A DNA stretch of 64,000 nt from a bacterium. Its GTDB lineage: Bacteria > UBA8248 > JACPRG01 > G963555815. Shown piece by piece: positions 20,943 through 60,446 of this stretch (position 1 is the stretch's first letter; the number at the start of each line of letters is the position of its first letter). The translations under genes were made by a program, and so were the position numbers. The DNA is taken from assembly GCA_965218795.1 (NCBI GenBank), contig OZ244653.1, positions 3,104,001-3,168,000 of the forward strand, written 5' to 3'. The notes below the pieces were generated by a model, which ran no database searches, was not told the DNA's origin, and saw only the letters and a list, made by a program, of their open reading frames with translations.

Positions 20943-20980
20943 CTTCCAGTATTCCGTTTCGCAAAGCTCACGCTTTGGCA

Positions 20981-38665: not shown

Positions 38666-40147
38666 CTAATGCCCGGTCGCCTCTTCCAGGTTGACCTCGA
38701 TGAATTCAGCAATAGAAGGATGAACGCGCTGCACCTCGTGGAACATCTGCTGAGCCACCCGCCGATAGGTGAAATGGCCGTTCGGGGCGCTCCTCAGCTT
38801 GACGACGTGCATGATCTCGCGGAGGTTGAGCGTCCAGAGCAGTCGGCGCCGGTGGGCGTTCAGGACGAAGTAACGCGCCTCGTTGGGGAAATCCTTCGAG
38901 TACCTGTCAAAACAGGATTCCGCCTGTTCAACCCCCGCCATGTAGTCCTCGCGGGCGTCTGCGTCATCAATGAGTTCGGGAGTGACGAACCCGTGCCGGA
39001 TGGTCGGCGGCTGGACGCTCTGCGTACACATCCTGTGCCGTTTGAGGTCCAGGTAGGCGCCCTGGTCGACCAGGCACTCGAAGGTGTAGGTCAGGTGCTC
39101 CATCTGGCGGAGGGGAATGTCGAAGCGATCAAGCCGCCGGAGGGCTTCTTCGATGACGGCGCGTTTTCGATCGTCGGGCAGACCCGCCACGCGCCCGCGA
39201 AGCTCCTCATAGGGAACGTCGGTATGGGGATACAGGATGGCGGCCGCGAGGCTGGATTCCGGATCTTCGGGATATTCAAGGAGACGGGTGTAGCTCTCCT
39301 CATCCGATACGGGTTCCGAGGCGGCCATGTCTTCCGCCAGCAATTGCACCGCCTCCCGGGTCTCCGACATGTAGGCGTTGTAGTCGGCATATTTCACGAG
39401 CGTGGGCACGGCCTGCTGGCAGACCTCTTTCAAGGTATCGCCGATTTGACGGATCTCGCTCAGCTCGTGACTTACCATCTTGCGGATGGCGTGCTCCAGC
39501 ACCCGGGCGTTGGCCGTCATGCCCACGTTGGCCAGCGCGGAAACGGGCAGGAGGAACCTCGCGCGGTCCAGGGCGTAAGCCCGCACGCGCACGCCGTAGC
39601 CCCGGTCGGATTCGCCTTCGCGCCGGGGAAGCCGCCCGGACCTCCGAAGGAAGGCGTCCAGCTTGTTCTGGAGGCCGAGGTAGTTTTCGAACATCCAGCG
39701 GGTCGCCTCCCGGTACTCTCCGGCCAGGGGGGAGGCGTCGATCTCCTCTGGAACGTAATAGTCGTCCACCGAGAAGATCTGGTAGCGGGAGGACTTCTCT
39801 GTATAGGAGGCGAGCCGGTTGGCCTCGATGACTTCGGTGGCGTACCGGCTCACGTTCTCGATGGCGATGGAGAGGACGGCGTGCTCGGCGACCGAGGCGT
39901 GCCCGTAGCCCACCACCCATTTCTCGTGAAACCGGGCGGAGGACTCATCCGTCAGCTCTTCGGCAATCTCATCGAAGGCCTTCGGCGACCGGCTCGTCTT
40001 GGCAAAGGCGACCGCCACGATTTCGGGCGGAAGATCCTTCAACAAATATACCCGACGACTTTTGCCTGTTTGTGGACTGCCGGGGTTTTGGGGGGCAGGG
40101 TTTCCGATGGAGGATTTCGCAACCGACGCCGACTCTGGGCTCATCAC
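38666..40147 (-). CDS. thyX: FAD-dependent thymidylate synthase, tandem two-domain form
   Basis: Domain 1 has YGHASVAEH, NRLASYTEKSSRY and ARFLLP; domain 2 has DLKRHR, RYFVL and LR..PNGHFTYR. Confidence 0.85.
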   Translation of the reverse strand: MMSPESASVAKSSIGNPAPQNPGSPQTGKSRRVYLLKDLPPEIVAVAFAKTSRSPKAFDEIAEELTDESSARFHEKWVVGYGHASVAEHAVLSIAIENVSRYATEVIEANRLASYTEKSSRYQIFSVDDYYVPEEIDASPLAGEYREATRWMFENYLGLQNKLDAFLRRSGRLPRREGESDRGYGVRVRAYALDRARFLLPVSALANVGMTANARVLEHAIRKMVSHELSEIRQIGDTLKEVCQQAVPTLVKYADYNAYMSETREAVQLLAEDMAASEPVSDEESYTRLLEYPEDPESSLAAAILYPHTDVPYEELRGRVAGLPDDRKRAVIEEALRRLDRFDIPLRQMEHLTYTFECLVDQGAYLDLKRHRMCTQSVQPPTIRHGFVTPELIDDADAREDYMAGVEQAESCFDRYSKDFPNEARYFVLNAHRRRLLWTLNLREIMHVVKLRSAPNGHFTYRRVAQQMFHEVQRVHPSIAEFIEVNLEEATGH

Positions 40148-40335
40148 ACCGCTGCTTTCAGGAAGGGATTCTGCGAGGCTGAATTTCTGCAGGCGGAGAG
40201 GCCTGCGCTTCTTATATCAGATGGCGTTTCCGGGAGCAAATTCGAGCCGCCAATTGACATGCCGGCGGCAACTGGACGACGAGTGCGGGGCTTTCAGGCG
40301 ACTCCCCGACTGAGACTCTCGGGGGCATGGGAGGC

Positions 40336-41820
40336 CTAATGGGCCAAGGCGACGGCGGAGAGACCTTTCAAGAGTCCGGCCACGGAGGTCTGGGCGGCGC
40401 TGAAGAAGGGATGAGGATACAGCCCGATGAACAGGACGCCGATCACCATGATCGCGATGCCGACCGTCAAGGGGAAGGAATTCGACGTCTGAATCCGGCC
40501 CGTCGGTTCTTCCATATACATCAGCATGACGACGCGGAAGTAGTAATAAAGCGATATCGCGCTGTTCAGCATCCCGATGATGGCCAGCCAAACGAACCCG
40601 GCATCAATCGCCGCCGCAAAGAGGTAGAACTTGCCCACGAAACCTCCGGTCGGCGGGATTCCCGTCAAGCTGAGGAAGAAGATCACCAAAGCCAGGGAGG
40701 GCCAGGGATGCTCCCGGGCGAAACCCCGGAAGTCCTCCAGGTTGTCTCCCCGCATGTTCGGCCGGCAGAGGAGGATGATCAGCGCGAAAGCCCCGAGGTT
40801 CGTAAAGAGATAAGCCGCCATGTACAGCATGATGCTGGCGATCCCGGTGCTCGTCGCCACGACGAGCCCGATCAGGATATATCCGGCGTGCGCGATGCTG
40901 GAATAGGCCAACAGCCGCTTGAGGTTGGACTGGACGAGAGCGCCAATGTTGCCCCAGGTCATCGTGACCACCGCCAGGAGCCAGAGCAGGATGGTCCACT
41001 CGTCCTGGGAGCGGCCGAGGCCGACCATAAAAACCCGCACCAGAGCGGCGAAGGCGGCCGCCTTGGTCCCGACGGACATGAAGGCCGTAATGGGGGTGGG
41101 GGCTCCCTGATAGGCGTCCGGCGCCCACATGTGAAACGGCACCAAAGCCACTTTGAAGGCAAATCCGGCCGTCAGCAGGATGATGGACAGGGTCAGCAGG
41201 GGACTGGAGCCCGAGGGCTTTCCCAGGAGGGCCTCGCGGATGCCGTCCAGATAAATCGTTCCGGTGTATCCGTAAATGAGCGCGATCCCGTACAGGACGA
41301 TGGCCGAGCTGAATATCCCAAGCAGGAAATACTTGATGCCCCCTTCCTGCGACGCCAAGTCGCGCTTGAGAAAGCCCACCAGAATGTAAACGGGGATGGA
41401 GAGCAGCTCCAGGCCGATATAAATGGTCAACAGGTCGTTGCCCGAAGCCATGACCATCATGCCGATGGTCGAGAACAGCAGGAGGGAATAGTATTCACCC
41501 AGATTGATCTCTTCGATCTTCAGATAACGGAAGGAGATCAAGACGGTCAGGAAGGTGACGCCCAAAAAGATGAACTTGAAAAACGTGGAGAAATCGTCTA
41601 CCCGGTACATTCCGCCGAACGCCCGAGTGTCCTGTCCCACCATCCGGGCCAAAAAAATTCCAGTGACGACCAGTCCCACCAAAGTGAGGAACCCCACGAA
41701 GCCCTTTCGGGAGGGTGAGAGGAACAGATCCACCAGGATCACCAGGCAGACCAGGGCCGTCATGATGATCTCGGGCAGGATCGGGCCCAACTGAACCGTT
41801 GGCAGGAGAATGGGTTCCAT
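40336..41820 (-). CDS. nuoN: NADH-quinone oxidoreductase subunit N (operon 2)
   Basis: LELLS, EGGIKYF, FKVALVPFHMWAPDAYQGAP and KRLLAYSSIAHAGY. Confidence 0.95.
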   Translation of the reverse strand: MEPILLPTVQLGPILPEIIMTALVCLVILVDLFLSPSRKGFVGFLTLVGLVVTGIFLARMVGQDTRAFGGMYRVDDFSTFFKFIFLGVTFLTVLISFRYLKIEEINLGEYYSLLLFSTIGMMVMASGNDLLTIYIGLELLSIPVYILVGFLKRDLASQEGGIKYFLLGIFSSAIVLYGIALIYGYTGTIYLDGIREALLGKPSGSSPLLTLSIILLTAGFAFKVALVPFHMWAPDAYQGAPTPITAFMSVGTKAAAFAALVRVFMVGLGRSQDEWTILLWLLAVVTMTWGNIGALVQSNLKRLLAYSSIAHAGYILIGLVVATSTGIASIMLYMAAYLFTNLGAFALIILLCRPNMRGDNLEDFRGFAREHPWPSLALVIFFLSLTGIPPTGGFVGKFYLFAAAIDAGFVWLAIIGMLNSAISLYYYFRVVMLMYMEEPTGRIQTSNSFPLTVGIAIMVIGVLFIGLYPHPFFSAAQTSVAGLLKGLSAVALAH

Positions 41821-41823
41821 GGT

Positions 41824-43461
41824 TTACTTTTCCGGCGCGCTCCGGAAGGCCTTTGAAACGATCTCTCGGACTTCCCGGGCCGACCCGGGCGGCGACTTGG
41901 GCACGACAGGACGCGCGAACGCCTTGCCGTCGATGGGCTTGCCCGCTTTCGCCAGTTCCATCTGCTTCACGAGGTTTTTGACCGCGGGCTCCATCAGGTT
42001 GATGAACGGTTTCGGATAGATTCCGATCCAGAACATGAGGAGAATAATCGGCATCATGTAGACGACTTCCCGCACGTTCAGATCCGTCAAATTCTGGTTC
42101 TCGGGCTTATCGAGGTTTCCGAACATCATCCGTTGGAAGAGCCAGAGCATGTATGCCGCCCCCAGGACAATACCCGCCACCGCAAAGCCCGCATAGACCT
42201 TGCTGACCTGGAATGCGCCCACCAGGATCAGGAACTCACCGATAAATCCGTTCAGCCCCGGCAGGCCGATCGAAGAGAACATGGTGATCGCGAAGATGAC
42301 GGTGAAGATTGGGACGACCTTCGAGAGGCCGCCGTAATCGGCGATCAACCTCGTATGACGCCGCTCATAGATGATTCCGACAATCAGGAAGAGCGCCCCC
42401 GTGGAGAGACCGTGGTTGAGGTTTTGAAGGAGAGCGCCCACCAGCCCCTGAGAGTTGAGGGCGAATATGCCCAGCATGACAAAGCCCAAGTGACTCACTG
42501 AGCTGTAGGCCACGAGCTTCTTGACGTCCTGCTGCGCCATGGCGACCAGAGCCCCGTAAATGATGCCGACAATGGCCAACAGCGCCATGAACGGGACCAT
42601 CGTCTCACTCGCCTGCGGCACCAACGGCAAATTGAAACGGACGAAACCGTAGGTTCCCATCTTCAGCAGCACGCCCGCCAGGATCACACTCCCGGCCGTG
42701 GGAGCCTCCACATGCGCGTCGGGCAGCCACGTGTGGAATGGAAACATGGGAACCTTGATGGCGAACCCCACGAAGAGCGCCAGGAAGACCCAGAACTGGT
42801 AGTCCGCAGGAAGCCTGGGCGCCATCCGATAAAGCTCGAGGAGATTGAACGTCAGCTCGCCCGAGCCGTACGCCGGGTTGGCGTTCAGGAAATACAGGGC
42901 CAGGAAGCCCAGCAGAAGGAGGACGCTGCCCACCAGCGTATACAGAAAGAACTTGATGGCCGCGTAAAGCTTTCTGGGCCCGCCCCAGATCCCGATCAGG
43001 AAGTACATCGGGACGAGCATCACCTCCCAGAAGATATAGAACAGGAACAGATCCAGCGAAACGAAGACGCCCAGCATCCCTGTCTCGAGAATGAGGAGGC
43101 TGATGTAGTACTCTTTTTCACGTTCCCCAATGGCTTTGTAGGAACAAAGAATCGAGATCGAGGAGAGAAGGGTCGTCAAGAGAATCAGAAGGATGCTGAT
43201 GCCGTCCAGGCCCATGAAGTAGGTGACGCCGATGGACGGGATCCAAGTGTATTGCTCCACAAACTGCATTCGGACGTTGTTGGCGTCGAAGGCCGGCAAC
43301 AGCCAGAGGGAAAGGGCCAGGGTGATCAGCGATACGATCAGGGTGAAGTTCCTGATGGCCGCCGCCTTCTCCCGGGGGAAGAAGAGCATCACGATGAAGG
43401 CCCCGATGATGGGGACAAAAACCATATAGGTCAAAACCGGGAAACCCAGAACGTTCGTCAT
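41824..43461 (-). CDS. nuoM: NADH-quinone oxidoreductase subunit M (operon 2)
   Basis: FWEVMLVPMY, IKVPMFPFHTWLPDAHVEAPT and KKLVAYSSVSHLG. Confidence 0.95.
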   Translation of the reverse strand: MTNVLGFPVLTYMVFVPIIGAFIVMLFFPREKAAAIRNFTLIVSLITLALSLWLLPAFDANNVRMQFVEQYTWIPSIGVTYFMGLDGISILLILLTTLLSSISILCSYKAIGEREKEYYISLLILETGMLGVFVSLDLFLFYIFWEVMLVPMYFLIGIWGGPRKLYAAIKFFLYTLVGSVLLLLGFLALYFLNANPAYGSGELTFNLLELYRMAPRLPADYQFWVFLALFVGFAIKVPMFPFHTWLPDAHVEAPTAGSVILAGVLLKMGTYGFVRFNLPLVPQASETMVPFMALLAIVGIIYGALVAMAQQDVKKLVAYSSVSHLGFVMLGIFALNSQGLVGALLQNLNHGLSTGALFLIVGIIYERRHTRLIADYGGLSKVVPIFTVIFAITMFSSIGLPGLNGFIGEFLILVGAFQVSKVYAGFAVAGIVLGAAYMLWLFQRMMFGNLDKPENQNLTDLNVREVVYMMPIILLMFWIGIYPKPFINLMEPAVKNLVKQMELAKAGKPIDGKAFARPVVPKSPPGSAREVREIVSKAFRSAPEK

Positions 43462-43558
43462 TGCAATCGGTCCTTTACATCGCGTCCGGGCGACGGGTCT
43501 TTTCCGACGTCATGCCCGAGAGCTCAGTCATCCGTCCAGTGCGGATTCCGTCCCTCCG

Positions 43559-45595
43559 TTATCCATACAAGAGGTACAAACTCAGAATGATGAATACACC
43601 GATGAGCATGGCGAGGGCATAGTTCTGAACAGCCCCGGTCTGAACCCGCCGGAGGCCCCGCCCCCAATTCGTCAGGATCACACCGATCCCGTTGACGGCC
43701 CCGTCCACCGTCCGCAGGTCAAAGACACCTGACAACCTGCTGGACCAAACGGTCACCCAGGAGGTCCCGTTGACGGCCCCGTCCACGCCCTTGGAGTCCA
43801 CCCAAAACAGGGCCCGCATCAGCCAAAGTATCGGTCGGATGATGCAGGCATCGTAAATCTCGTCCACCCAATACTTGTTCAGCAGCAGGCGATAGGTGCC
43901 CTGGAATCTATCGGTCAGGCGATTGGCCAGATCCAGGTTCTTCGTGTACATGTGCCGGGCGAGCATCCACCCGCTGACCCCGACGACAACGGAGACCGCC
44001 GCCAGAATCCAATGCAGCGCGCCCGATGAACCGCCCCCCGCCGCCGCTGCCAGCTGAATTCCCGCAGGCGCCGCGGCATGGGAAGAAGCCCTGAAAACGG
44101 GCGCCATATAATCCGAAAACCAGTGCAGCCCCGGCATATCCACCCAACCGCCAATCGCCGCCAAAACCGCCAGGATCATCAACGGGATCGTGATGACCGA
44201 TGGTGACTCGTGCAGATGGTGCGCCGCCTCATGGCCCACCCGAGACTCGCCGTAAAAGGTCATGTAGATCAGCCGGAACATGTAAAAAGCCGTCATGAAC
44301 GCCCCGATCAGCCCGATCACGTAGAGCGTGTAATGGCCCGATTCGAACGTCCCGGCCAGAATGGAGTCCTTGCTGAAGAAACCCGCGAACGGGGGAATCC
44401 CCGCGATGGCCAGCGCACCGATGTAGAACGTGATCGCAGTGACGGGCATGTGCTTGCGGAGCCCGCCCATATAACGCATGTCCTGCCGCCGCGCCTCGTC
44501 CGGATCCCCGTGGAGGGCGTGGATGACGCTCCCCGATCCCAGAAAGAGCAGTCCCTTGAAGAAGGCGTGAGTCATCAGGTGAAAGATCGCGAAGGAAAAG
44601 GCTCCCACGCCGCAGCCCAGGAACATATAGCCCAACTGACTCACGGTCGAATAGGCCAGGACCCGTTTGATGTCGTTCTGCACCAGCCCGATAGCCGCCG
44701 CGAATATCGCCGTCAGCCCGCCGATAATCGCCACGATTTCCATTGAGACGGGAGCCAGCAGGTACAGGGCGCTGGATCGGGCCACCATATAAACCCCCGC
44801 CGTCACCATGGTGGCGGCATGGATGAGCGCGCTGACGGGAGTCGGGCCTTCCATGGCGTCGGGCAGCCACACATACAGCGGAATCTGCGCCGATTTTCCG
44901 ACCGCGCCGATGAACAGACAAATCGTGATGAAGGTGGCGGAGGAGGCGATGGCGGAGCCGGGCCCCGCGGCCCGGGCCTGATCGATCACCCCGTCCCCGC
45001 CAAAATAAGCGAGGGTGCCGAAGACCTGGAAGATCATGAACACGCCCAGGAGGAAACCCGCGTCACCGATTCGGTTGACGATGAAGGCCTTCTTCCCCGC
45101 GTCGGACGCGGACTTCTTGTGGTACCAGAAACCAATCAGCAGATAAGAGCACAGCCCCACGCCCTCCCAGCCGACGAACATCAGCAGGTAGTTGTTCCCC
45201 AGGATCAGGATCAGCATGGCGAACATGAAGAGATTCAGGTACGTGAAGAACCGTGCGTAACCCGGATCGCCGTGCATATAGCCGATGGAATAGACGTGGA
45301 TCAGGAAGCCCACACCCGCTACGACAAGCAGCATGACCGAGCTCAGCGGATCGAGACGAAAGCCCACTTCCGTTTTCAGCGTTCCAGCCAGAACCCAGTC
45401 GAAAAGGGTGACTTCGATCGTCCTGCCCTGCAGGATCGTCTGGTTGAGGACGATCAGGGCGAAGAGAAGCGAGAGGGCCGTCGACAGGATGGCGATCCAG
45501 TGCGCCTTCCTGCCGGTCCACCGGCCGAAGAGACCGTTGATCAGGGCTCCCAGACCAGGCAACGCGACAATCCAAGGAATGAGTTGTTCGGCCAT
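43559..45595 (-). CDS. nuoL: NADH-quinone oxidoreductase subunit L (operon 2) with a lengthened amphipathic helix
   Basis: GWEGVG, GKSAQIPLYVWLPDAMEGPTPVSALIHAATMV and HAFFK; VDGAVNG occurs twice, 26 aa apart. Confidence 0.95.
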   Translation of the reverse strand: MAEQLIPWIVALPGLGALINGLFGRWTGRKAHWIAILSTALSLLFALIVLNQTILQGRTIEVTLFDWVLAGTLKTEVGFRLDPLSSVMLLVVAGVGFLIHVYSIGYMHGDPGYARFFTYLNLFMFAMLILILGNNYLLMFVGWEGVGLCSYLLIGFWYHKKSASDAGKKAFIVNRIGDAGFLLGVFMIFQVFGTLAYFGGDGVIDQARAAGPGSAIASSATFITICLFIGAVGKSAQIPLYVWLPDAMEGPTPVSALIHAATMVTAGVYMVARSSALYLLAPVSMEIVAIIGGLTAIFAAAIGLVQNDIKRVLAYSTVSQLGYMFLGCGVGAFSFAIFHLMTHAFFKGLLFLGSGSVIHALHGDPDEARRQDMRYMGGLRKHMPVTAITFYIGALAIAGIPPFAGFFSKDSILAGTFESGHYTLYVIGLIGAFMTAFYMFRLIYMTFYGESRVGHEAAHHLHESPSVITIPLMILAVLAAIGGWVDMPGLHWFSDYMAPVFRASSHAAAPAGIQLAAAAGGGSSGALHWILAAVSVVVGVSGWMLARHMYTKNLDLANRLTDRFQGTYRLLLNKYWVDEIYDACIIRPILWLMRALFWVDSKGVDGAVNGTSWVTVWSSRLSGVFDLRTVDGAVNGIGVILTNWGRGLRRVQTGAVQNYALAMLIGVFIILSLYLLYG

Positions 45596-45605
45596 GCTCA
45601 GCGAC

Positions 45606-45908
45606 TCACCACTTGAGGATGTTGATCTCGTCCACGTTCAGCGTGGCTTTTCTACGGTTCAGTGAAATGATGAAGGCCAGACCGACCGCCGCCTCGACGG
45701 CGGCAACCGTGATCACGAAGATGACGAACATCTGCCCCATCATGTTTCCGTTCATTTTGGCGAACGCGATGAACGTCAGGTTGACGGCGTTCAGCATCAA
45801 CTCAATCGACATCAGAATCATGATGACGTTCCGCCGCGTCACGACGCCGATCCCGCCGATGACAAAGACCATCCCGGCGAGGGCCAGGTAGTATTCGCCC
45901 GGTACCAT
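45606..45908 (-). CDS. nuoK: NADH-quinone oxidoreductase subunit K (operon 2)
   Basis: RRN...MSIELMLNA and [10 protein letters not shown]; start MVPGEYY. Confidence 0.93.
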
Positions 45909-45978
45909 CAGCGTTTCTCTCCCCGAAGGTCGCACGGGCCGGGCAGGCAAACCGGTTGAAGTCTCGCTTGTGTGGTCA

Positions 45979-46500
45979 TCACTCGATATTTCGCTTCGCC
46001 ATGACGATTGCGCCGATCATGGCCGCCAACAGCAACAGCGAAGTCACCTCAAAGGGAAAAAGGAACTGGGTGTAGAGCGTGGCGCCGAACGCCTCGGTGT
46101 TTCCCCCATATGCGTTCAAGACCGATTTCGCGGCTTCGGCCGTCTTCGCCGAAGGGGCCGCGATGCCCTTCGCAAAGATGGCCAGAAGCTCTACGGCGAG
46201 CAGAACCCCGATCACGGCCGCCGCAACCTTCTGGCGGTGCCACTGCCGCTCGGCCATCGACTCCCGGACGTTGATGAGCATGATGACAAAGACATAGAGC
46301 ATCATGATGGCGCCGGCGTAAATCAGCACCTGAATCGCCGCCAGGAATTCCGCTTCGAGCATGACGTACAGGGCGGCCGCGCAAAAGAGCGTCAGCAGCA
46401 GATAGAGCGCCGCGTGAACGACGTTTCGTCGCGTGATCACCAGCACCGAAGCGATCAGCATGACGCCGCCAAAGAGTATGAAGAAGGCCCATTCCATCAA
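45979..46500 (-). CDS. nuoJ: NADH-quinone oxidoreductase subunit J (operon 2)
   Basis: [17 protein letters not shown] and [10 protein letters not shown]. Confidence 0.93.
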
Positions 46501-46557
46501 TTCGACCGTCCTTTGCGCTTTCGATCCACCCCGGTCTGCGCGCCGCGCTCGGGCCGA

Positions 46558-47511
46558 TCAGACCAGGTACATCAAAAGTCCAGTCGCGAAGATATTGGCC
46601 AGAGCAAGGGGAAACATGATCTTCCATCCCAATCGCATGAGCTGGTCGTACCGGAACCGCGGCAACGTCGCACGGAGCCACATCATGAAGAACATGCCGA
46701 GGAACACCTTGATGATGAACCAGTGAACGCCCGGAACGATGGGGCCCAGGTAGCCGCCGAAGAAGACGACGGCGGCGACGGAGCAGACGATCAGCATGTT
46801 GGCGTACTCGGCCAGGAAGAAGAAGGCGAACTTCATCCCGCTGTATTCGGTATGGAACCCGGCCACCAGTTCGGTTTCAGCTTCGGGCAGGTCGAAAGGC
46901 ACCCGGTTGGTCTCCGCAAGTCCGGCGATGAAGAACAACACGAAGGCCAGAGGCTGGTAAAAGATATACCAAGCCTCTTGCTGACCCTCGACGATTCCCT
47001 TCATATTCAGAGTGCCCGCAACCATCAATGGCCCGATGAGGGCAAATCCCAGGAAAATCTCATAGGAGATCATCTGCGCAGCCGCTCGGAAGGCCCCGAG
47101 CATTGAATACTTGCTTCCCGAGGCCCAGCCCGCCATCACGACGCCGAATATCCCCAATGAGGAGACACCGACGATAAACAACAGACCAATGTTCAGGTTG
47201 GCGATAATGAACCCTTCGGAAAACGGGATCACGGAATAGACGACGAAGGCGGGGATCAGCGCAAGGAGAGGCGCGATCAGGAAGACCGCCTTGTCGGACT
47301 CCCGCGGAATGATGTCTTCCTTCAAAAAGAGCTTGAGTCCGTCGGCGATTGGCTGCAACAGCCCATGCGGTCCGACGCGCATCGGCCCCAGACGCACCTG
47401 CATATGGCCGATCACCTTCCTCTCCATATACGTCATATAGGCCACCACCAGGGACACGGTCCCCCACACGACGACGATCTTAATCACGGCAAAAACGGTT
47501 TCGACCCACAT
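46558..47511 (-). CDS. nuoH: NADH-quinone oxidoreductase subunit H (operon 2)
   Basis: [23 protein letters not shown] and [17 protein letters not shown]. Confidence 0.95.
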
Positions 47512-47550
47512 CCCTGGTCTGCTGACTCCCTTGCCGGACTGAGGCCTTGG

Positions 47551-48681
47551 TTAGCGGTCTACCTCGCCCAGGACAATGTCGATGCTCCCGATGGCCGCGA
47601 TGGCGTCGGCCACGAGCTGGTCCTGCAACATAAAGGGCAGGGCCTGAAGGTTGATGAAGGAAGGGGGCCGGATCCGCAGCCGGTAGGGCCGGTCCGTCCC
47701 GTCGCTCACAAGGTAATAGCCCAACTCCCCCTTCGGACTCTCGATCCGGTGGTAGACATCCCCCAGCTTCGGCTTGAGCGTCCTCGGCACCTTGGCCATC
47801 GTTCGTCCGGTCGGCAAATCGGAGACTGCCTGATCGATGATGTAGCAGCTCTGACGCATCTCTTCCAATCGGACGAGATAACGATCATAGGTGTCGCCGT
47901 TTTTCCCCACCGGAACGGTAAAGTCGAAATCCTCATAGGCGGCATACGGCTCGGCTTTGCGAATGTCGAACGGGACGCCGGCCCCCCGGATGATGGGCCC
48001 GCTGACGCCCAGATTGGTCGCGTCTTCCGCATTGAGCACCGCGACCCCGCGCGTGCGCTTCTGCCAGATCCGGTTCTCCGTCAGGAGGTCCTCGTAGTCG
48101 TACATCGCCCGGGGGAAATAGCGGACAAAATCTTCGCAGGCGAGGAAAAACTCGGTCGGCGGATCTTCAAAAATTCCACCGACACGGAAGCTGTGAACGG
48201 TGAGTCGCGCCCCGTAGGCGGTCTCAAACAGGTCCAGGATTTTCTCCCGGTCCCGGAAGCAATAGAGAAACACCGTCATGGCCCCGATATCCAGGGCGTG
48301 GGTGCCCAGCCAGAGCAGGTGGCTCGCAATACGGGTCAACTCCGCCGTGATGACGCGAACGTATTTGGCCCGGATGGGAACGTCCAGCTCCAGGAGCTTT
48401 TCGACGGTCTCAACGTAGCCCTCGTTGCCGGTGGGAGAGGCGACGTAGTCCGTTCGATCCGTATAAGGGACAAATTGGCCGTAGGCGAGATTTTCCCCGA
48501 TCTTCTCCACTCCGCGATGGAGGTAACCGATGTCGCAGTCGGTATGCTTGATGGTCTCACCGTCCAACTGGAGGATGACCCGGAGAACACCGTGGGTGCT
48601 GGGGTGCTGGGGCCCCATGTTCACCACCAGTTCTTCGGTCTGCGGAACGATGGGGTCGGTTTTCTCAGGCGCCTGAACCAC
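47551..48681 (-). CDS. nuoD: NADH-quinone oxidoreductase subunit D (operon 2)
   Basis: [24 protein letters not shown] and DIVLGEVDR; no NiFe CxxC motifs. Likely GTG start at 48681. Confidence 0.93.
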   Translation of the reverse strand: MVQAPEKTDPIVPQTEELVVNMGPQHPSTHGVLRVILQLDGETIKHTDCDIGYLHRGVEKIGENLAYGQFVPYTDRTDYVASPTGNEGYVETVEKLLELDVPIRAKYVRVITAELTRIASHLLWLGTHALDIGAMTVFLYCFRDREKILDLFETAYGARLTVHSFRVGGIFEDPPTEFFLACEDFVRYFPRAMYDYEDLLTENRIWQKRTRGVAVLNAEDATNLGVSGPIIRGAGVPFDIRKAEPYAAYEDFDFTVPVGKNGDTYDRYLVRLEEMRQSCYIIDQAVSDLPTGRTMAKVPRTLKPKLGDVYHRIESPKGELGYYLVSDGTDRPYRLRIRPPSFINLQALPFMLQDQLVADAIAAIGSIDIVLGEVDR

Positions 48682-48694
48682 TTGGGGTGTCCTC

Positions 48695-49384
48695 TCAGCC
48701 CTTGGACTGGACGGGCCGACTGTCCGGGGGGATCTGCCGTTGCACCCAAGACAATCCGAAACCGTCGCCGGGGAGGGGGTATTCCTTCCGTAGGGGAAAT
48801 CCTTCCCAATCCGCGGGAAGCAGAATCCGGCGCAGGTCGGGATGACCTTCGAACTCAATCCCGAACATGTCGAAAGCTTCCCGCTCGAGCCAGTTCGCTG
48901 TCCGCCAAACGCCCTGAACCGACGAAACGGCATCACCCTCGGCCAGCCGCACCTTCAGCCGGAGGCGCTCGGAGCGCTCGATCGAAAACAACTGATAGAC
49001 GACCTCCAGAGGCTTTTCCCGCTCCGGATAGTGGACCCCGCACAGGTCCGACAGGAAATCGAAGCCATGTTCCTCTTTGAGGAAGCGGCACAATACCAAA
49101 ATCCGGCCAGCGGGCACGACCATGGAGACCTCATCGGGACCTTCCGTAAACGAGGTGACCTCTTCGACTTCGTCTCCGATCAGGCTCCGGACGGCCTGCA
49201 CCCCTCGCAGGGACTCGATGGGATCCTCCGGCTCTTCGGACGGTTCCTCAGGGGGCGCAGCTTCGCCTTCGCCGCCTCCCGCGGAAGCGGCTTCTTCCGT
49301 GTTTTCTTGAGTTTCCGAGGACGGTTCCGACTCGGCAGCGGAGGGAGCCCCTTCTTCCTCCTCCGTCTGATTCTCTTCGGCCAT
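48695..49384 (-). CDS. nuoC: NADH-quinone oxidoreductase subunit C (operon 2), with an acidic N-terminal extension
   Basis: ANWLEREAFDMFGI.FEGHPDLRRIL and GFPLRKEYP. Confidence 0.92.
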   Translation of the reverse strand: MAEENQTEEEEGAPSAAESEPSSETQENTEEAASAGGGEGEAAPPEEPSEEPEDPIESLRGVQAVRSLIGDEVEEVTSFTEGPDEVSMVVPAGRILVLCRFLKEEHGFDFLSDLCGVHYPEREKPLEVVYQLFSIERSERLRLKVRLAEGDAVSSVQGVWRTANWLEREAFDMFGIEFEGHPDLRRILLPADWEGFPLRKEYPLPGDGFGLSWVQRQIPPDSRPVQSKG

Positions 49385-49399
49385 AAGTTTCCTGAATTG

Positions 49400-49876
49400 T
49401 TACGCGCGCAGGAACTTCTCCTGCTGAATCTTTTCCTGGAGTTTCAATACCCCCCACATCAGGGCTTCAGGACGCGGCGGGCACCCGGAGATGTAAATGT
49501 CTACCGGAACCACCTGGTCCACCCCCTGAAGAGTGGAGTAGGAGTTGAACGGTCCGCCGGCGGTCGAACAACTCCCCATCGAAATCACCCATCTCGGCTC
49601 GGGCATCTGGTCGTACACCTTTCGGAGCACCGGAGCCATCTTGTACGTGACCGTCCCGGCGACGATCATGACGTCCGACTGTCGCGGCGTCGCGCGGAAG
49701 ATCACACCGAACCGGTCGAAGTCGAAGCGCGAGGCTCCCGACGCCATCATCTCGATGGCACAGCAGGCCAATCCGAACGTCATGGGCCACAAGGCCGACT
49801 TCCGCGCCCAGTTCACCAGATAATCCAGCGTCGTGGTGAGAATGTTCTCCTGAAATCGGTGTTCGACTATACCCAT
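49400..49876 (-). CDS. nuoB: NADH-quinone oxidoreductase subunit B (operon 2)
   Basis: [15 protein letters not shown] and GCPPRPE; start MGIVEH at 49876. Confidence 0.95.
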
Positions 49877-50259
49877 TCCAGGGCTCCCTTCTTCCAGGCG
49901 TAAACGTATCCTACGAGCAGGATCAAGAGGAAGAGCATCATCTCGATGAACCCGAACAGACCGATACGGTCGTAGACCACGGCCCACGGAAAGAGAAATA
50001 CGCCTTCCACATCGAACAAGAGAAACAGGATGGCAACGATATAGAATCGGATGGAGAAATGCTCGCGCGCCCGGATTAAGGGAGGAATTCCGCATTCATA
50101 AGGTGAAAGTTTTTCCGGATCAGGTCGATGGGGGCGCACAATCGCGGCGATGATCAGCGTTCCTCCTCCGAAGGCCGCCGCCACCAGCAGAAAGATAAAG
50201 ACGGGTATAAATGGATGTATCGACGTATAGTCGCTGAAAAAGCGGCTCAGTAATTCCAC
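49867..50259 (-). CDS. nuoA: NADH-quinone oxidoreductase subunit A (operon 2)
   Basis: [15 protein letters not shown] and [10 protein letters not shown]. Confidence 0.95.
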
Positions 50260-50337
50260 GCTGACAGACCCTCGACTTGAATTGGATAGCAGACAGTCGA
50301 AATGTCACCGGATTGGGTACCACCAGAACGTAACGAA

Positions 50338-50390
50338 ATTATAATCCTTCCTCCACCCTCGTAAAAGGGCAAATCGTAAATATTTGCACT
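50338..50390 (-). promoter_or_regulatory. Sigma70-like promoter and upstream inverted repeat for nuo operon 2
   Basis: Minus strand reads TTTACG-N16-TATAAT (50365-50338); GCAAAT-N7-ATTTGC inverted repeat at 50369-50387. Confidence 0.5.
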
Positions 50391-50403
50391 TTTTTTCACA
50401 AGC

Positions 50404-51900
50404 TCAAAACCCCCCGGCGGCGGCCCATCTGGCCAGCGCCAAGGCCTGTGAAGGGAATATCCCGAGCTGAAGCGTCCCCCAGCCCGCGATCAGGAGACCC
50501 GCGGCGGTCAGGACACCGACCCGGAGGACCGCGGCGCCCGGGCCGGCTTCCATTTTCGCATCACCGGCCACAGCGCCCTCCGGCTCCCGCATGTACAGGT
50601 GGACGACGACACCCAGGTAGTAAGTCACGGCCGCCACGCTGTTCAGCACGGCGATGATCACCAGCCAGGTGTAACCGGCCTGCACCGCCGCACTGAAGAT
50701 GTAGACCTTGCCCATGAATCCGGCCGTCGGCGGAAGTCCTGCAAGGCTGAACATGAACAGGGCCAGGACGAATCCCAAAACCGGATGGCGGAACCCCAAC
50801 CCGTCGTATTCGGACAGCTCGAGCGATTCACGGCCGTCCCGATTCATCGCACCCAAAGCAATGATGACCCCGAAGGCTCCGACCGTGCTCAGCGTGTACT
50901 GGAACAGGTAGAACAGGAGACCACCGGAGCCGGTCTCATTCAGAGCAACCAGCGCCACGAGGAGATAGCCGGCATGGGCGATGCTCGAGTAGGCCAGCAT
51001 CCGCTTGATGTTGCGCTGGGTGATGGCAGCCACATTCCCCAAGGTCATGGTCAGGACGGCCATCACCCATAGAATTCCGCCCCAATCCACATGAAGGGCG
51101 GCGAGCGGGCCCGCGAAGACGCGGAACAGAGCAGCGAAGCCCGCGGCCTTGACAGCGGCCGCCATAAACCCCGTGACCGGAGTGGGCGCGCCTTCGTACA
51201 CGTCGGGGGCCCACATATGGAACGGCACCGCAGCCACTTTGAACCCGAACCCCACCACCAGCAACCCGATGCCCACCAGCAGGAGCCAGTCGGCGCCGCC
51301 CGATTGGCCGGCCAGCCTCTCGCTCAGGATGGCGTGGTCCAGGCTTCCGGTGCTGCCGTAGATCAGGGCGATTCCATAAAGCAAAAAACCGCTGGCAAAG
51401 GCCCCCATCAGGAAGTACTTCATGGACGCCTCGCTGGAGGCGACCCTCGTCTTGAGCAATCCCGCCAGGACATAGGAAGCAATGGACATCACCTCGAGAC
51501 CGAGGAAGATTGTGACCAGGTTCGTCCCGCCCGCCATCATGACCATCCCCGCAGCCGCAAAAAGCAATAGGGCGTAATACTCGCCCCCGGCGATTCCTTC
51601 GCGCGCCGTATAGTTGTAGGACAGAAGCCATGTGAGGGCAGTCCCCAAGACGAAGATCAACGTAAAGGCCTGGGTCACCCGGTCGGAGGAGAACATCCCG
51701 TTGAAGACCCGCTGGGGCGTATCCCAAATCGCGATGGCCGACGCCGCCGTTCCCGCCAAAATCACCAGGCCCAGTCCCGCGAGCCAGCCGCGGGCATCCT
51801 TCATGAAGACATCCACCATCAATACCGCAATGGCGCCCAGGCAGAGCCACACCAGGGGCAGAACGGCGGTCAGGTTAACGCTGGGAATTTCGGGCAACAC
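50404..51900 (-). CDS. nuoN: NADH-quinone oxidoreductase subunit N (operon 1)
   Basis: LEVMS, EASMKYF and FKVAAVPFHMWAPDVYEGAPTP; start estimated near 51900. Confidence 0.93.
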   Translation of the reverse strand: MLPEIPSVNLTAVLPLVWLCLGAIAVLMVDVFMKDARGWLAGLGLVILAGTAASAIAIWDTPQRVFNGMFSSDRVTQAFTLIFVLGTALTWLLSYNYTAREGIAGGEYYALLLFAAAGMVMMAGGTNLVTIFLGLEVMSIASYVLAGLLKTRVASSEASMKYFLMGAFASGFLLYGIALIYGSTGSLDHAILSERLAGQSGGADWLLLVGIGLLVVGFGFKVAAVPFHMWAPDVYEGAPTPVTGFMAAAVKAAGFAALFRVFAGPLAALHVDWGGILWVMAVLTMTLGNVAAITQRNIKRMLAYSSIAHAGYLLVALVALNETGSGGLLFYLFQYTLSTVGAFGVIIALGAMNRDGRESLELSEYDGLGFRHPVLGFVLALFMFSLAGLPPTAGFMGKVYIFSAAVQAGYTWLVIIAVLNSVAAVTYYLGVVVHLYMREPEGAVAGDAKMEAGPGAAVLRVGVLTAAGLLIAGWGTLQLGIFPSQALALARWAAAGGF

Positions 51901-53455
51901 GAGTCGGCTCCCGCATCGAATCAACAGACCATGAACCATTTCGGAGCGATGCCGTGCGTTCAGCCTTGGAGGCATTTTCCTTCAGAACTTGCACGACGGA
52001 CGCTTCCATCTTCTGCAAGAATGGTTTGGGGGCCAGTCCGATCCAAAAGACAAACAGGACGATGGGGACCAGAACCGCCCACTCCCTCGGATTGAGGTCG
52101 GGGAGTGACCGATTTTCATCCTGCGTCAACTCTCCGAAGATCACTCGCTGAACCATCCAGAGCATATAGACGGCTCCCAGGATGATCCCCAGCGCGGCCC
52201 ACGCGGTCGCCCAGCGGTGCACACGGAATGAACCCATCAAAAGGGTGAATTCACCGATGAACCCGTTCAGCCCCGGAAGCCCGATCGAAGAAAACGTAAT
52301 AATGAGAAAAATGACCGAGTAGGCCGGAATGATCTTGGCCAGCCCTCCGTACTGCGCCATGAGACGGGTATGCCGTCGCTCGTAGAGAATCCCGACCAGA
52401 AGGAACAAGGCACCGGTCGACAGCCCGTGATTCACCATCTGAAGGATTCCGCCTTCAATCCCCTGGACGTTTACCGCAAACAAACCCAACATGACGAACC
52501 CCAAGTGACTGACCGAGCTGTATGCCACCAATCGTTTGATATCTTCCTGGACAAAGGCCATCAAAGCTCCGTACAGGATCCCGATGACCGACAGAGCGAC
52601 GATGAACGGAGTAAAATCTCTTGCGGCCAGCGGAAAGAACGGAATCGCGAAACGAATGAAGCCATACGTCCCCATCTTCAGGAGGACGCCCGCCAGGATT
52701 ACACTCCCCGAGGTGGGGGCCTCCACATGGGCGTCCGGAAGCCAGGTATGGAATGGAAACATGGGGACCTTGATGGCGAAGGCCAGGAAAAACGCTCCAA
52801 ACAGCCACCACTGGACGTCGCCCGCGAGTCCGAGCCGATTCAGCGTGAAATAATCGAAGGTCAAGGCGCCGGTAGCCTTGTAATTCAGATACACCATCAC
52901 CAGAAGAGCGACCAGCATCAGGACGCTTCCGGCCATGGTGTAGAGAAAAAACTTCACTGCCGCGTAGATCCTTCGCTCCCCCCCCCAAACGCCGATGAGC
53001 AGCGCCATGGGAATCAGCATGACCTCCCAGAACACGTAAAAGAGGAACATGTCGAGGGCAACGAAGACCCCCAGCATGGCCGACTCGAGGACGAGCATGG
53101 CGATATAGAACCCCTTAATGCGGCGCTGGATCTCCCGCCAGGAGCTCAGGATGGCAAGCGGTGTCAGGAACACCGTCAGCAACACCATCCACAAACTGAT
53201 TCCATCCACCCCCAATCGATAGCCAATCCCGAAGGTGGGGATCCACTCGACGTTTTCCGAGAACTGCATCGCTGCCACATCTGGGCGGAATGAGATACAG
53301 AGGATCACGCCCAAAACAAACGTCGCCGTCGAGAAAATCAGGGCGATTCCCTTTAGCGTCGACGGCTCCCGGCGGCTCCATCCGCCCACCAGAAACGCGC
53401 CCGCCAGGGGAAGAAAAACAATCCAACTCAAAATGGGAAATTCCATCGAATCCAA
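51875..53455 (-). CDS. nuoM: NADH-quinone oxidoreductase subunit M (operon 1)
   Basis: FWEVMLIP and IKVPMFPFHTWLPDAHVEAPT. Confidence 0.95.
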   Translation of the reverse strand: MDSMEFPILSWIVFLPLAGAFLVGGWSRREPSTLKGIALIFSTATFVLGVILCISFRPDVAAMQFSENVEWIPTFGIGYRLGVDGISLWMVLLTVFLTPLAILSSWREIQRRIKGFYIAMLVLESAMLGVFVALDMFLFYVFWEVMLIPMALLIGVWGGERRIYAAVKFFLYTMAGSVLMLVALLVMVYLNYKATGALTFDYFTLNRLGLAGDVQWWLFGAFFLAFAIKVPMFPFHTWLPDAHVEAPTSGSVILAGVLLKMGTYGFIRFAIPFFPLAARDFTPFIVALSVIGILYGALMAFVQEDIKRLVAYSSVSHLGFVMLGLFAVNVQGIEGGILQMVNHGLSTGALFLLVGILYERRHTRLMAQYGGLAKIIPAYSVIFLIITFSSIGLPGLNGFIGEFTLLMGSFRVHRWATAWAALGIILGAVYMLWMVQRVIFGELTQDENRSLPDLNPREWAVLVPIVLFVFWIGLAPKPFLQKMEASVVQVLKENASKAERTASLRNGSWSVDSMREPTRVARNSQR

Positions 53456-53493
53456 CCCGTCCCTATCCGGGATCGGCGCTCCGCTTCATTCCC

Positions 53494-55416: not shown

Positions 55417-55420
55417 GCCG

Positions 55421-55723
55421 TTACAAGCGGAGCAGGTTGACTTCGTCCACGTCAACCGACTGCTTATGCCGATAAATCGAGATGATAATGACGAGCCCCA
55501 CGGCGGCCTCAGCCGCCGCGACCGTCATCACAAAGAAAACGAGAATCTGCCCGTCCAAGGTTTGCAGAAATCGGGAAAACGCGACGAGCGTCAGGTTGGC
55601 CGCGTTCAGCATCAACTCGATGCACATGAAGATCACGATGGCATTTCGACGCAGGAGCACACCGATAACGCCGATCCCAAAGAGGATCGCGCTCAAAATC
55701 AGGTAGTGTGAGAGAGGAACCAA
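55421..55723 (-). CDS. nuoK: NADH-quinone oxidoreductase subunit K (operon 1)
   Basis: [17 protein letters not shown] and AAAEAAVGL; TTG start. Confidence 0.92.
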
Positions 55724-55827
55724 CTCGTCTTTCCTCCGCTTTTCTCCGATTCCATGCCGAATCGATTCAGGTTGCCCTGGAACGACTTCCGAGGCGTCCA
55801 CCGGTAAATCGTTAACGCGGGGAGCGC

Positions 55828-56343
55828 CTAACCGGGACTCCGCCGGGCCAGGACCACTGCCCCGATGATCGCGACAAACAGTAAGATGGAAGTGATCTCA
55901 AAGGGCAGGAGATAGTCGGTGAACAGGAGCCAACCGATGGACTTCACTCCGCCAATCTCGGCCAACCGCTCCGGAGAGAAAGCTCCGACCGCTTCCGGAT
56001 TCTTCACGCCACGCATCCGAGCAAGAACGAAAATCAATAAACCGAGGGCAAAAACCAAGCCCGCGATTTTCTGGCCTTTCAGCCTGAGCGGCGTCCGCTT
56101 CTCCCGGCCGACGTTGAGCAACATGATGACAAACAAAAAGAGCACCATGATGGCCCCGGCGTAGATCAGCACTTGAATAGCGGCGAGGAATTCAGCGTGG
56201 AGGAGCAGGAAGATACAGGCCAGGCTGAACAGGGTCCCGATGAGGTACAGGGCGCTGTACACCGCGTTTTTCGAACAGAGCACCATCAGCGCCGTCACGA
56301 CTGAGATCACCGCAAAGACGTAAAACAGGATCATCGGCATCAT
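55828..56343 (-). CDS. nuoJ: NADH-quinone oxidoreductase subunit J (operon 1)
   Basis: [27 protein letters not shown]. Confidence 0.93.
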
Positions 56344-56861: not shown

Positions 56862-56889
56862 CCTGCCGCCCTCCTGAGCGGCGTCGCCC

Positions 56890-60443: not shown

Positions 60444-60446
60444 TGG

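Follow-up and report, generated by a model that had tools for sequence, protein, structure and literature searches.

The locus analysed here raises the question of how a complex-I-type enzyme can be supplied with electrons when its gene set lacks NuoI (TYKY), which is regarded as belonging to the core of even the smallest, 11-subunit enzyme. NuoI is a defining member of that 11-subunit set, and the Q-module wire begins with its clusters. Within the window, a 64,000-nt stretch of DNA from a Nitrospinota-type bacterium, a canonical 14-gene nuo operon (operon 1) is followed by a second, ten-gene set (operon 2) containing neither nuoI nor nuoEFG. A literature search found no published description of this gene order.

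Operon 2 occupies positions 40336–50259 of the minus strand in the order nuoA-B-C-D-H-J-K-L-M-N. Its ten genes were identified using Pfam and NCBIfam and their starts were curated. In the direction of transcription the features are:

50260–50403, minus strand: spacer between nuoN1 and nuoA2, 144 nt, with promoter-like boxes and an 18-nt block
49867–50259, minus strand: nuoA2, 130 aa, GTG start; Pfam PF00507, profile positions 4–99 of 99
49400–49876, minus strand: nuoB2, 158 aa, carrier of cluster N2, start set by curation at ATG 49876 with a ribosome-binding site; Pfam PF01058; NF005012 259.9 bits, cut-off 116
48695–49384, minus strand: nuoC2, 229 aa; Pfam PF00329; TIGR01961 148.7 bits, cut-off 122
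47551–48681, minus strand: nuoD2, 376 aa, GTG start at 48681; Pfam PF00346; TIGR01962 491 bits, cut-off 459
47512–47550, minus strand: spacer between nuoD2 and nuoH2, 39 nt; the site of nuoEFG in 14-gene operons
46558–47511, minus strand: nuoH2, 317 aa; Pfam PF00146, profile positions 1–297 of 298; NF004741 377 bits, cut-off 305
46501–46557, minus strand: spacer between nuoH2 and nuoJ2, 57 nt; the site of nuoI in relatives
45979–46497 or 46500, minus strand: nuoJ2; Pfam PF00499
45606–45908, minus strand: nuoK2, 100 aa, curated ATG start at 45908; Pfam PF00420; NF004320 111.8 bits, cut-off 57
43559–45595, minus strand: nuoL2, 678 aa; Pfam PF00361 and PF00662; TIGR01974 760 bits
41824–43461, minus strand: nuoM2, 545 aa; Pfam PF00361; TIGR01972 643 bits
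40336–41820, minus strand: nuoN2, 494 aa; Pfam PF00361; TIGR01770 468.8 bits

Every gene is intact, with each Pfam match spanning nearly the whole of its profile (10 of 10), and by the same measure the membrane subunits A, H, J, K, L, M and N form a complete, full-length set. The NCBIfam subfamily cut-offs are passed by H, K, L, M and N, while NuoA2 matches the NuoA models below their equivalog cut-offs; nuoA2 is found in the relatives too. The initial annotation had described ten intact genes in this order, separated by 39 nt between nuoD and nuoH and by 57 nt between nuoH and nuoJ, and both the order and the gaps are confirmed. The second gap is 57 nt if nuoJ2 starts at a TTG codon or 60 nt if it starts at ATG, and both gaps are too short to hold nuoI or nuoEFG. 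The span originally given, 40336–50403, contains the genes, but its end takes in the 144-nt spacer up to the nuoN1 stop at 50404.

None of nuoE, nuoF, nuoG or nuoI lies within operon 2, and the E, F and G genes of the window are confined to operon 1, of which nuoA1 and nuoB1 fall outside the window:

50404–64000, minus strand: operon 1 (canonical), nuoC (cut off), D, E, F, G, H, I, J, K, L, M and N, by Pfam
63572–64000, minus strand: nuoC1, cut off by the window edge
56340–56861, minus strand: nuoI of operon 1, 173 aa from the ATG at 56861; Pfam Fer4 families; NF004537 183.4 bits, cut-off 163
50404–51975, minus strand: nuoN1

The nuoI of operon 1 is the sole NuoI-type gene, encoding two [4Fe-4S] clusters, in the 64-kb window. 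A six-frame scan of the window for the motif CxxCxxCxxxCP returned two matches, both within this gene, and tblastn with six NuoI proteins from relatives matched only at 564xx–56861, with all other window hits at E values of at least 0.069. NuoC2 has an acidic, low-complexity N-terminal extension of about 80 aa that could be imagined as a stand-in for NuoI; this was rejected because nuoI-keeping relatives have such extensions too. The subunits of operon 2 are 44–58% identical to their operon 1 counterparts, and a tree of NuoH places the operon 2 clade apart from operon 1.

The absence of nuoI is a lineage trait. We examined 35 related loci of the operon 2 clade with flanks of 10 kb on either side; in 31 of these nuoH is followed directly by nuoJ with a spacer of 16–85 nt, two contain nuoI (L022 and L023) and two are cut off (L002 and L019). 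The 31 I-less loci are species-level, with labels that are mostly Nitrospinota, Tectomicrobia or unclassified, and their proteins have diverged to about 50–70% identity. In a five-subunit tree, built alongside that of NuoH only, the operon 2 clade has a support of 100 and L023 and L022 branch at its base, which is compatible with a single loss of nuoI. Outgroup clusters in which nuoH directly follows nuoD (Acidobacteriota, Methanosarcinales and Bacteroidota-type) have nuoI as the next gene in 29 of 29 cases, bearing out the earlier statement that EFG-less relatives normally keep it.

The I-less sets also share a position on the chromosome. Twenty-eight of the 30 evaluable I-less loci (L025 is not evaluable) lie directly downstream of an operon-1-type nuoN belonging to a 14-subunit operon, and neither of the two I-containing relatives, the closest ones to retain that gene, does. 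The junction between the operons is conserved but the genes downstream of nuoN2 are not, at least five different neighbours occurring across the window, L003, L014/L033, L020 and L027. The nuoI of operon 1 is the only ferredoxin-type ORF in 24 of the 28 I-less tandem loci, the other four (L012, L029, L030 and L035) ending short of nuoI1, and also in the cut-off tandem locus L002. No second ferredoxin-type ORF was found in the roughly 21 kb of any I-less locus or in the 64-kb window. L005 and L006, which are nested within the subclade of the window, carry the I-less set too, but operon 1 is missing from the roughly 7 kb upstream of it and their 21 kb of sequence contain no ferredoxin-type ORF. 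Adjacency is therefore not obligatory. Since tandem position and loss of nuoI probably go back to one evolutionary event, their link is an association rather than a statistical test.

A set with a core gene missing might be a duplicate that is silent or decaying, with the loss of nuoI as a step towards pseudogenisation. We consider this very improbable, as the ten genes are intact, the arrangement is kept in all 31 species-level loci despite their divergence, and the promoter-like spacer in front of the set is conserved. Among columns at least 95% conserved in the reference sequences, 496 of 509 are unchanged in 90% or more of the I-less rows. Relative to L001, dN is 0.008 for NuoB2 and 0.019 for NuoD2 and ranges from 0.008 to 0.13 across operon 2, compared with 0.035–0.10 for operon 1, with dS saturated in this comparison. 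Operon 2 is therefore under purifying selection and is not a relic, and relaxed selection, which the initial annotation had raised against its own proposal, is ruled out by the retained columns and by dN values as low as those of operon 1.

The residues that define the chemistry of the enzyme have been retained. The four N2 cysteines of NuoB2 (Cys38, Cys39, Cys103 and Cys132, the first two forming the CC pair) do not vary in any of the 34 rows labelled I-less, among which the two cut-off loci are counted. In NuoD2, His55 (of HRG) and Tyr79 (of DRTDY), which we take from the Thermus and Yarrowia structures to be quinone-site ligands, are invariant in the same 34 rows and in all 38 reference rows. 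The large subunit of a [NiFe] hydrogenase binds NiFe through two CxxC pairs. NuoD2 has cysteines only at positions 49, 141, 182 and 279, with no CxxC and a cysteine-free C-terminus ending in GEVDR, so operon 2 is not a group 4 membrane-bound hydrogenase of the Ech/Mbh/Hyc type; on the N2 and quinone-site residues, and on this exclusion, the first reading was right. The best structural relatives of NuoD2 are the 49-kDa/NuoD chains of solved complex I, with chain B of 7q5y the best of all. The presence of NuoB, C, D and H excludes a Mrp-type cation/proton antiporter, in which antiporter-like subunits occur without a Q module. A 2M-type complex I is marked by an additional nuoM and a lengthened nuoL (Chadwick et al. 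2018, as described in PMC6606698); operon 2 has one nuoM, and NuoL2 (678 aa) is close in length to NuoL1 (653 aa). Judged by its N2 cysteines, its His/Tyr pair and its membrane subunits, operon 2 belongs to the quinone-reducing complex I superfamily of the Nuo/Ndh/Fpo type.

Within that superfamily the ten subunit families are those of canonical 14-subunit complex I (operon 1, Thermus 4hea and the E. coli 7z7s type), but operon 2 lacks an N-module (NuoE, F and G) and NuoI of its own and so cannot be classed as a 14-subunit NADH:quinone oxidoreductase. It resembles the 11-subunit EFG-less enzymes in having no nuoEFG and in keeping the N2 and quinone-site residues. The 11-subunit order is found in L023, in L022 (apart from nuoB) and in the 29 outgroup clusters, and Desulfitobacterium (D.) hafniense has an operon nuoABCDHIJKLMN (PMC11238625); operon 2 differs from such sets in the absence of nuoI and in being fixed immediately after a full 14-gene operon. 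Second complex I sets in other autotrophs related to this lineage, in Nitrospinota and Nitrospira, are also non-canonical clusters without some of the core genes, and reverse electron transport to ferredoxin has been proposed for them (PMC3578206 and PMC6606698). The NUO-2 of N. gracilis, unlike operon 2, has nuoI together with modified nuoE, F and G (PMC3578206).

We lean, with somewhat less than even confidence, towards operon 2 being a separately promoted second quinone-plus-pump chassis that is completed in trans by the NuoI of operon 1. The ten genes would give the cell a second, working chassis for a redox-driven proton pump of the complex I type, made up of a quinone module (NuoB, C and D, with H and A) and a complete pump module (J, K, L, M and N). 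Its ancestor may have been an EFG-less cluster with its own nuoI between nuoH and nuoJ, this gene having been lost in the ancestor of the large Nitrospinota/Tectomicrobia group in which the set sits directly behind the 14-gene operon. With N2 and the quinone site kept, electrons would still have to reach N2 through a NuoI-type subunit with its two [4Fe-4S] clusters, and the NuoI of operon 1 would be the most likely source, used by both assemblies. The initial annotation had suggested a swap-in kit sharing NuoI, NuoEFG and perhaps NuoM with operon 1. Sharing of NuoI gains indirect support from the 28 of 30 tandem loci, the non-tandem nuoI keepers and the conserved junction, with the set of L005 and L006 standing apart; sharing of NuoEFG is possible; sharing of NuoM is unnecessary, operon 2 having its own L, M and N. 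The alternative named there, a distant ferredoxin-type input subunit, would lie beyond the window and the ±10-kb loci covered here. If NuoEFG also attach, the product may be a second NADH:quinone isoenzyme, and if they do not, it may be a ferredoxin-type enzyme that could run in reverse, its physiological role perhaps including reverse electron transport to ferredoxin.

Sharing of subunits between such assemblies has parallels. Cyanobacterial NDH-1 variants swap NdhD/NdhF around a shared core. Some genomes, such as that of Syntrophobacter fumaroxidans, have one N-module and two copies of the rest, and resemble our proposal in the idea of one subunit set serving two assemblies (Spero et al. 2015, PMC4453560). 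The present case would differ from both in sharing NuoI and exchanging ten subunits, nearly the whole enzyme, and it does differ in the physical tandem of the two operons with an internal promoter-like spacer.

The main rival, which we rate somewhat lower, is a dedicated operon-2-type nuoI at another place in the genome, either alone as an orphan or within a small cluster; operon 2 would then be an ordinary 11-subunit EFG-less enzyme with scattered genes, probably ferredoxin-linked. The NUO-2 of N. gracilis is scattered in this way, as nuoACHIJKLMN, nuoEGD, a single nuoB2 and nuoF2 (PMC3578206), and relatives of operon 2 can be short of other single genes, the L022 cluster lacking nuoB and L065 lacking nuoB and nuoI. 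The separation of the I-less set from operon 1 in L005 and L006 fits the same picture, as do ten database proteins that group with the L023 NuoI (support 87), five of which (P0006, P0007, P0009, P0011 and P0013) are protein sequences without gene context. A dedicated gene would, however, leave unexplained why 28 of 30 evaluable loci retain the operon 1 junction even as the genes beyond nuoN2 vary, and why the two nuoI-keeping relatives are those not in tandem; the lack of a second ferredoxin-type ORF near the I-less sets also counts against it. Pointing the same way, a search with the L023 NuoI gave only five clusters of at least 60% identity to it, while the adjacent NuoJ gave well over 100 at 46–58%, many named Nitrospinota, a weak comparison given that the NuoI search took only 56 candidates and missed the NuoI of L022.

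The fit that sharing by operon 1 would demand is not self-evident from the sequences, since the operon 1 NuoI falls in the 14-subunit NuoI group and is only 37–38% identical to the NuoI of L022 and L023. Compared with relatives that have their own NuoI, fixed differences are limited to 9 columns in NuoB2, 3 in NuoD2 and 6 in NuoH2 and are mostly conservative, which speaks for unaltered NuoI-binding surfaces. The same small number speaks against a bolder and less likely form of the proposal, in which N2 of the second chassis receives its electrons with no NuoI-type subunit involved. The direct feed to N2 would then come from a different Fe-S or flavin protein, encoded elsewhere and docked on NuoB2/NuoD2, much as mbx-like operons have a GltD-like flavoprotein at the NuoI position (Degli Esposti 2015, PMC4758237). 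We regard this as improbable. In its favour, what donates electrons to 11-subunit enzymes is in general not settled (PMC11238625), and Cys49 of NuoD2 is typical of the clade, with proline at this position in 11- and 14-type relatives. Against this, no conserved candidate gene lies beside operon 2 in the window or the loci examined, and a NuoI-type subunit is present in every solved relative recovered with a NuoI query, namely complex I, photosynthetic NDH-1 (6hum), MBS (6u8y), MBH (6cfw) and FHL (7z0s).

The 144-nt spacer between the operons is a conserved promoter-like region. A promoter scan placed its best site in 40000–51000 here, with boxes TTTACG and TATAAT separated by 16 nt at 50365–50338 (10 of 12 matches). 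An 18-nt block at 50384–50401, which occurs once in the window, is shared with three of the four nearest relatives (alignment with L001–L004), L004 differing at two bases. Most of L007–L035 have a different, equally conserved box pair (TTGGTT and TATAAG/TATAGA) in the same place. With a conserved promoter-like region of its own, the second chassis could probably be adjusted independently of the first. The same feature counts against sharing of NuoI, as operon 2 could be transcribed while operon 1 is silent.

Taken further, the sharing of the operon 1 NuoI leads to a reading that we regard as possible rather than probable, that one input unit, for which operon 1 has the only genes (NuoI and possibly NuoEFG), serves two tandem chassis, the second with its own conserved promoter. 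The Fe-S wire would stay the same while the cell switched the quinone and proton-pumping part or the direction in which it runs, and this modular arrangement would be stable across a large part of Nitrospinota/Tectomicrobia. For annotation, a comparative study of the phylum described a second nuo set as absent from most non-Nitrospinia Nitrospinota (PMC10839748), in contrast with the second, partial set present in many MAGs labelled Nitrospinota here. A NuoI-less ten-gene set conserved in at least 31 species points to one of two things, a core Fe-S subunit shared by two respiratory assemblies or a new input to N2. Either outcome bears on how EFG-less complex-I-like enzymes are fed with electrons, and on the supply of reduced ferredoxin in autotrophs using the reductive TCA cycle.

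The 64-kb window carries two nuo gene sets, both on the minus strand, as identified from the ORF list with Pfam and NCBIfam. Operon 1 is the canonical set and runs in from the window edge; operon 2 comprises ten genes in the order nuoA-B-C-D-H-J-K-L-M-N, written here with the suffix 2. The starts of nuoB2, nuoD2, nuoK2 and the nuoI of operon 1 were curated from start codons and ribosome-binding sites.

The two nuo gene sets in the window (genes identified by Pfam and NCBIfam)
Window edge to 50404, minus strand, operon 1: nuoC (cut by the edge, 63572-64000), then nuoD, E, F, G, H, I, J, K, L, M and N
144 nt, minus strand, nuoN1-nuoA2 spacer between operon 1 and operon 2
49867-50259, minus strand, nuoA2
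49400-49876, minus strand, nuoB2 (start curated)
48695-49384, minus strand, nuoC2
47551-48681, minus strand, nuoD2 (start curated)
46558-47511, minus strand, nuoH2
45979-46497/46500, minus strand, nuoJ2
45606-45908, minus strand, nuoK2 (start curated)
43559-45595, minus strand, nuoL2
41824-43461, minus strand, nuoM2
40336-41820, minus strand, nuoN2

The gaps between nuoD2 and nuoH2 (39 nt) and between nuoH2 and nuoJ2 (57 nt) leave no room for nuoE, nuoF, nuoG or nuoI. A six-frame scan of the 64 kb found two CxxCxxCxxxCP motifs, both in the nuoI of operon 1 and none outside it, and tblastn with six NuoI proteins of relatives detected no second nuoI in the window, matching only the operon 1 gene. 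The Pfam matches of all ten operon 2 genes cover nearly the whole profiles, so that no gene is truncated and none is fused to a ferredoxin domain. NuoB2 contains the four cysteines of the Fe-S cluster N2, while NuoD2 contains the HRG histidine and DRTDY tyrosine of the quinone site and has no cysteine pairs. The initial annotation had described ten intact genes without nuoEFG and nuoI, with these residues kept and no hydrogenase character, and on each of these points gaps, motif scan, tblastn, Pfam coverage and residues agree with it. Operon 2 is accordingly not a group 4 [NiFe] hydrogenase; nor is it a 2M-type complex I or an Mrp antiporter, and it departs from the gene-content definition of the 11-subunit enzymes, which are also without nuoEFG, at nuoI.

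Directly downstream of nuoN2 lies a ThyX-like protein of 493 aa with two Thy1 stretches (38666-40147, minus strand). Elsewhere the window has what looks like a mobile or defence-like island (7476-28237), in which a SNF2-type helicase (7476-10334) adjoins a PLD-domain protein (10328-12619). A 2075-aa ORF (14757-20981) of this region matches HTH_upst_double_PIN and permuted GreAB-C and lies in a stretch of 52-55% GC; a YspA/SLOG protein is encoded at 21961-22971 and a transposase HTH fragment at 27650-28237. Across 22-28 kb, where the long ORFs are all without a Pfam match, GC stands at 68-71%. An Rfam scan of the window gave no matches.

A genome scan with NuoH2 as query returned 80 loci, which were taken with flanks of up to 10 kb either way and annotated by blastp against the window Nuo proteins; nuoA2 was found in the relatives' loci by direct reading of the sequence. 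The operon 2 clade comprises L001-L035, assigned, where taxa are named, to Nitrospinota, Nitrospinae, Nitrospinaceae or Tectomicrobia. In 31 of these 35 loci nuoH is followed directly by nuoJ (the I-less order), with spacers of 16-85 nt. Pfam identifies a 2x[4Fe-4S] NuoI gene between nuoH and nuoJ in two, L022 and L023, and in L002 and L019 the contig ends before this region, leaving the nuoI status unreadable. The synteny check proposed initially shows the I-less order recurring, and 28 of the 31 sets immediately follow an operon-1-type H-I-J-K-L-M-N. The upstream sequence of L025 is too short to judge tandem position. In L005 and L006 about 7 kb upstream of the set is occupied by unrelated genes in place of operon 1 (pentapeptide-repeat protein, aminotransferase, SDR, DsbA-like protein and methyltransferase), with downstream genes that match those of the window (ThyX, ATP sulfurylase and APS kinase). 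The 7 kb upstream of the L022 and L023 sets contains no nuo genes.

Outside the clade, all 29 clusters that lack nuoEFG and have nuoD directly followed by nuoH carry nuoI next; they belong to Acidobacteriota, GoM-Arc1-type archaea and Bacteroidota-type taxa. The expectation that such sets normally keep nuoI therefore holds, with L065 as the exception. This locus, labelled Vicinamibacterales (L065:2119-6315), has the cluster A-C-D-H-J-K-L without nuoB and nuoI, with gaps of 63 nt between A and C and about 50-120 nt between H and J, and represents an independent absence of Fe-S subunit genes. L022, a close relative of the I-less sets, keeps nuoI and has no nuoB in the 204-nt gap between nuoA and nuoC (L022:7445-8688), so different Fe-S subunit genes are missing in different lineages of this cluster type. 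In three loci labelled Eiseniibacteriota (L037, L042 and L056) the cluster consists of nuoA, a NuoE-like gene and H-J-K-L-M(-N); it lacks B, C, D and I and is split in a different manner.

In a NuoH tree (85 rows, quick search) the operon 2 clade of 36 rows has an SH-aLRT of 96 and stands apart from operon 1 NuoH. Its support is 100 in a concatenated tree of NuoB, D, H, L and M (LG+G4 with a quick search on 48 rows, each with at least three of the five subunits, and 12 outgroups picked by hand). In the five-subunit tree L023 and the cut-off L019 are sister to the remaining clade, and L022 forms a three-way split without resolution with two I-less subclades of 7 and 26 rows, each of them tandem. 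On this topology nuoI may have been lost once, or possibly twice, within the clade. L005 and L006 fall within the window's own subclade with support 100, and their separation from operon 1 is therefore secondary. The subunits of operons 1 and 2 share 44-58% identity, and operon 2 is an old paralogue or an import rather than a copy recently made from operon 1.

Of the sigma-70-like matches in 40000-51000, the best lies in the nuoN1-nuoA2 spacer (TTTACG, 16 nt, TATAAT; 10 of 12 matches); promoter-like sites in this interval are no more numerous than by chance (two against a shuffle mean of 4.0). Both boxes are conserved in an alignment of L001-L003, and the second subclade has a different, equally conserved pair in the same place (TTGGTT, 17-18 nt, TATAAG or TATAGA). 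Because of their position and conservation we infer that the boxes are a putative internal promoter for operon 2. An 18-nt block, TTGTGAAAAAAAGTGCAA, follows directly after the nuoN1 stop (50384-50401, minus strand) and occurs only once in the window. L001 and L003 share it unchanged, L002 and L004 have near-identical versions (two bases changed in L004), and a regulator may bind to it upstream of the boxes. No convincing terminator was seen after nuoN1, so read-through into operon 2 is also likely.

Conserved columns were defined as those at least 95% identical in all sequences that are not I-less, across nine subunits (NuoC was omitted, as too few rows passed the length filter). At least 90% of I-less rows keep 496 of these 509 near-universal columns, and most of the 13 exceptions are conservative changes. 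The N2 cysteines and the quinone-site His and Tyr show no variation across all 34 rows, L002 and L019 among them. Values of dN relative to L001 are 0.008 for nuoB2, 0.019 for nuoD2 and 0.036-0.13 for the other operon 2 genes, against 0.035-0.10 for operon 1 genes; dS is saturated (about 0.7-2.2 or undefined), which leaves dN as the only informative measure and makes dN/dS ratios rough. The relaxed selection on operon 2 that the initial annotation had raised against its own reading was not found, given the retained columns, the invariant residues and dN near that of operon 1, and it is scarcely credible that operon 2 is a decaying set.

NuoB2, NuoD2 and NuoH2 differ from relatives binding their own NuoI at 9, 3 and 6 columns, of which 5, 2 and 0 agree with relatives of the 14-subunit type and 3, 1 and 4 with those of the 11-subunit type; these columns give no clear signal of convergence on 14-subunit-type residues. 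Residue 49 of NuoD2 (48535-48537), six residues before the quinone-site histidine, is Cys in 88% of I-less rows and Pro in about 80% or more of both types of relative. The acidic N-terminal extension of NuoC2 was considered as a stand-in for NuoI and rejected on the ground that relatives with nuoI have similar ones. It is about 80 aa long in the window and about 170 aa (59 Asp+Glu) in L002 (L002:~7740-8770); these low-complexity tails are highly variable in length in the clade and also present in Acidobacteriota.

As the operon 2 enzyme retains N2 and the quinone site, it needs an electron feed. N2 is fed via a NuoI-type subunit in every solved relative recovered with a NuoI query, and its neighbour in the Thermus structure is N6b. 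The NuoI of operon 1 could well be the supplier, a reading that we favour tentatively. Loss of nuoI goes with tandem position, although this association may be a single event. The junction between the operons persists while the flank beyond nuoN2 varies: the window and L005 have ThyX there, L003 has an outer-membrane protein and an amidohydrolase, L014 and L033 have HAD/AIR-synthase-like genes, L020 carries two MFS genes and L027 hydantoinase genes. No further ferredoxin-type ORF was seen in any locus examined, and NuoB2, NuoD2 and NuoH2 are barely changed. Against this, L005 and L006 carry the I-less set apart from operon 1, and the two NuoI types are only 37-38% identical. A predicted complex of operon 1 NuoI with NuoB2 and NuoD2 gave neither support nor counter-evidence.

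An orphan nuoI elsewhere in the genome is the main rival source, somewhat less likely than operon 1, for which there are parallels in the single nuoB2 and nuoF2 genes reported for N. gracilis (PMC3578206) and in the clusters of L022, without nuoB, and L065, without nuoB and nuoI. A protein search with the L023 NuoI gave 42 proteins from 56 candidates and missed L022's own NuoI; it is not comparable with the search using the adjacent NuoJ (7073 proteins among 8000 scored). That a different input protein feeds N2 is improbable: mbx-like operons offer a precedent (PMC4758237), but no candidate was seen in the window or the loci examined.

Subunits common to complex I isoforms have been suggested earlier (PMC4453560). 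Full-text searches found no published account of a conserved set of ten genes, without nuoI, that stands in fixed tandem with a canonical operon; supplementary Fig. S6 of PMC10839748, on nuo genes, may bear on the point. The same phylum-wide comparison describes most non-Nitrospinia classes as being without a second nuo set (PMC10839748).

With NuoI supplied by operon 1, the role of the enzyme would depend on NuoEFG. If these subunits of operon 1 also attach, the cell would have two NADH:quinone isoenzymes that differ in their quinone and pump modules. Otherwise the result would be a hybrid without NuoEFG, and its exposed NuoI could pass electrons to or from ferredoxin. Such an exchange has been suggested for other second complex I sets, those of Nitrospina and Nitrospira, whose reductive TCA cycle requires reduced ferredoxin (PMC3578206, PMC6606698). 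On genomic grounds, operon 2 is of clear interest for the evolution of complex I and for ferredoxin reduction in autotrophs.
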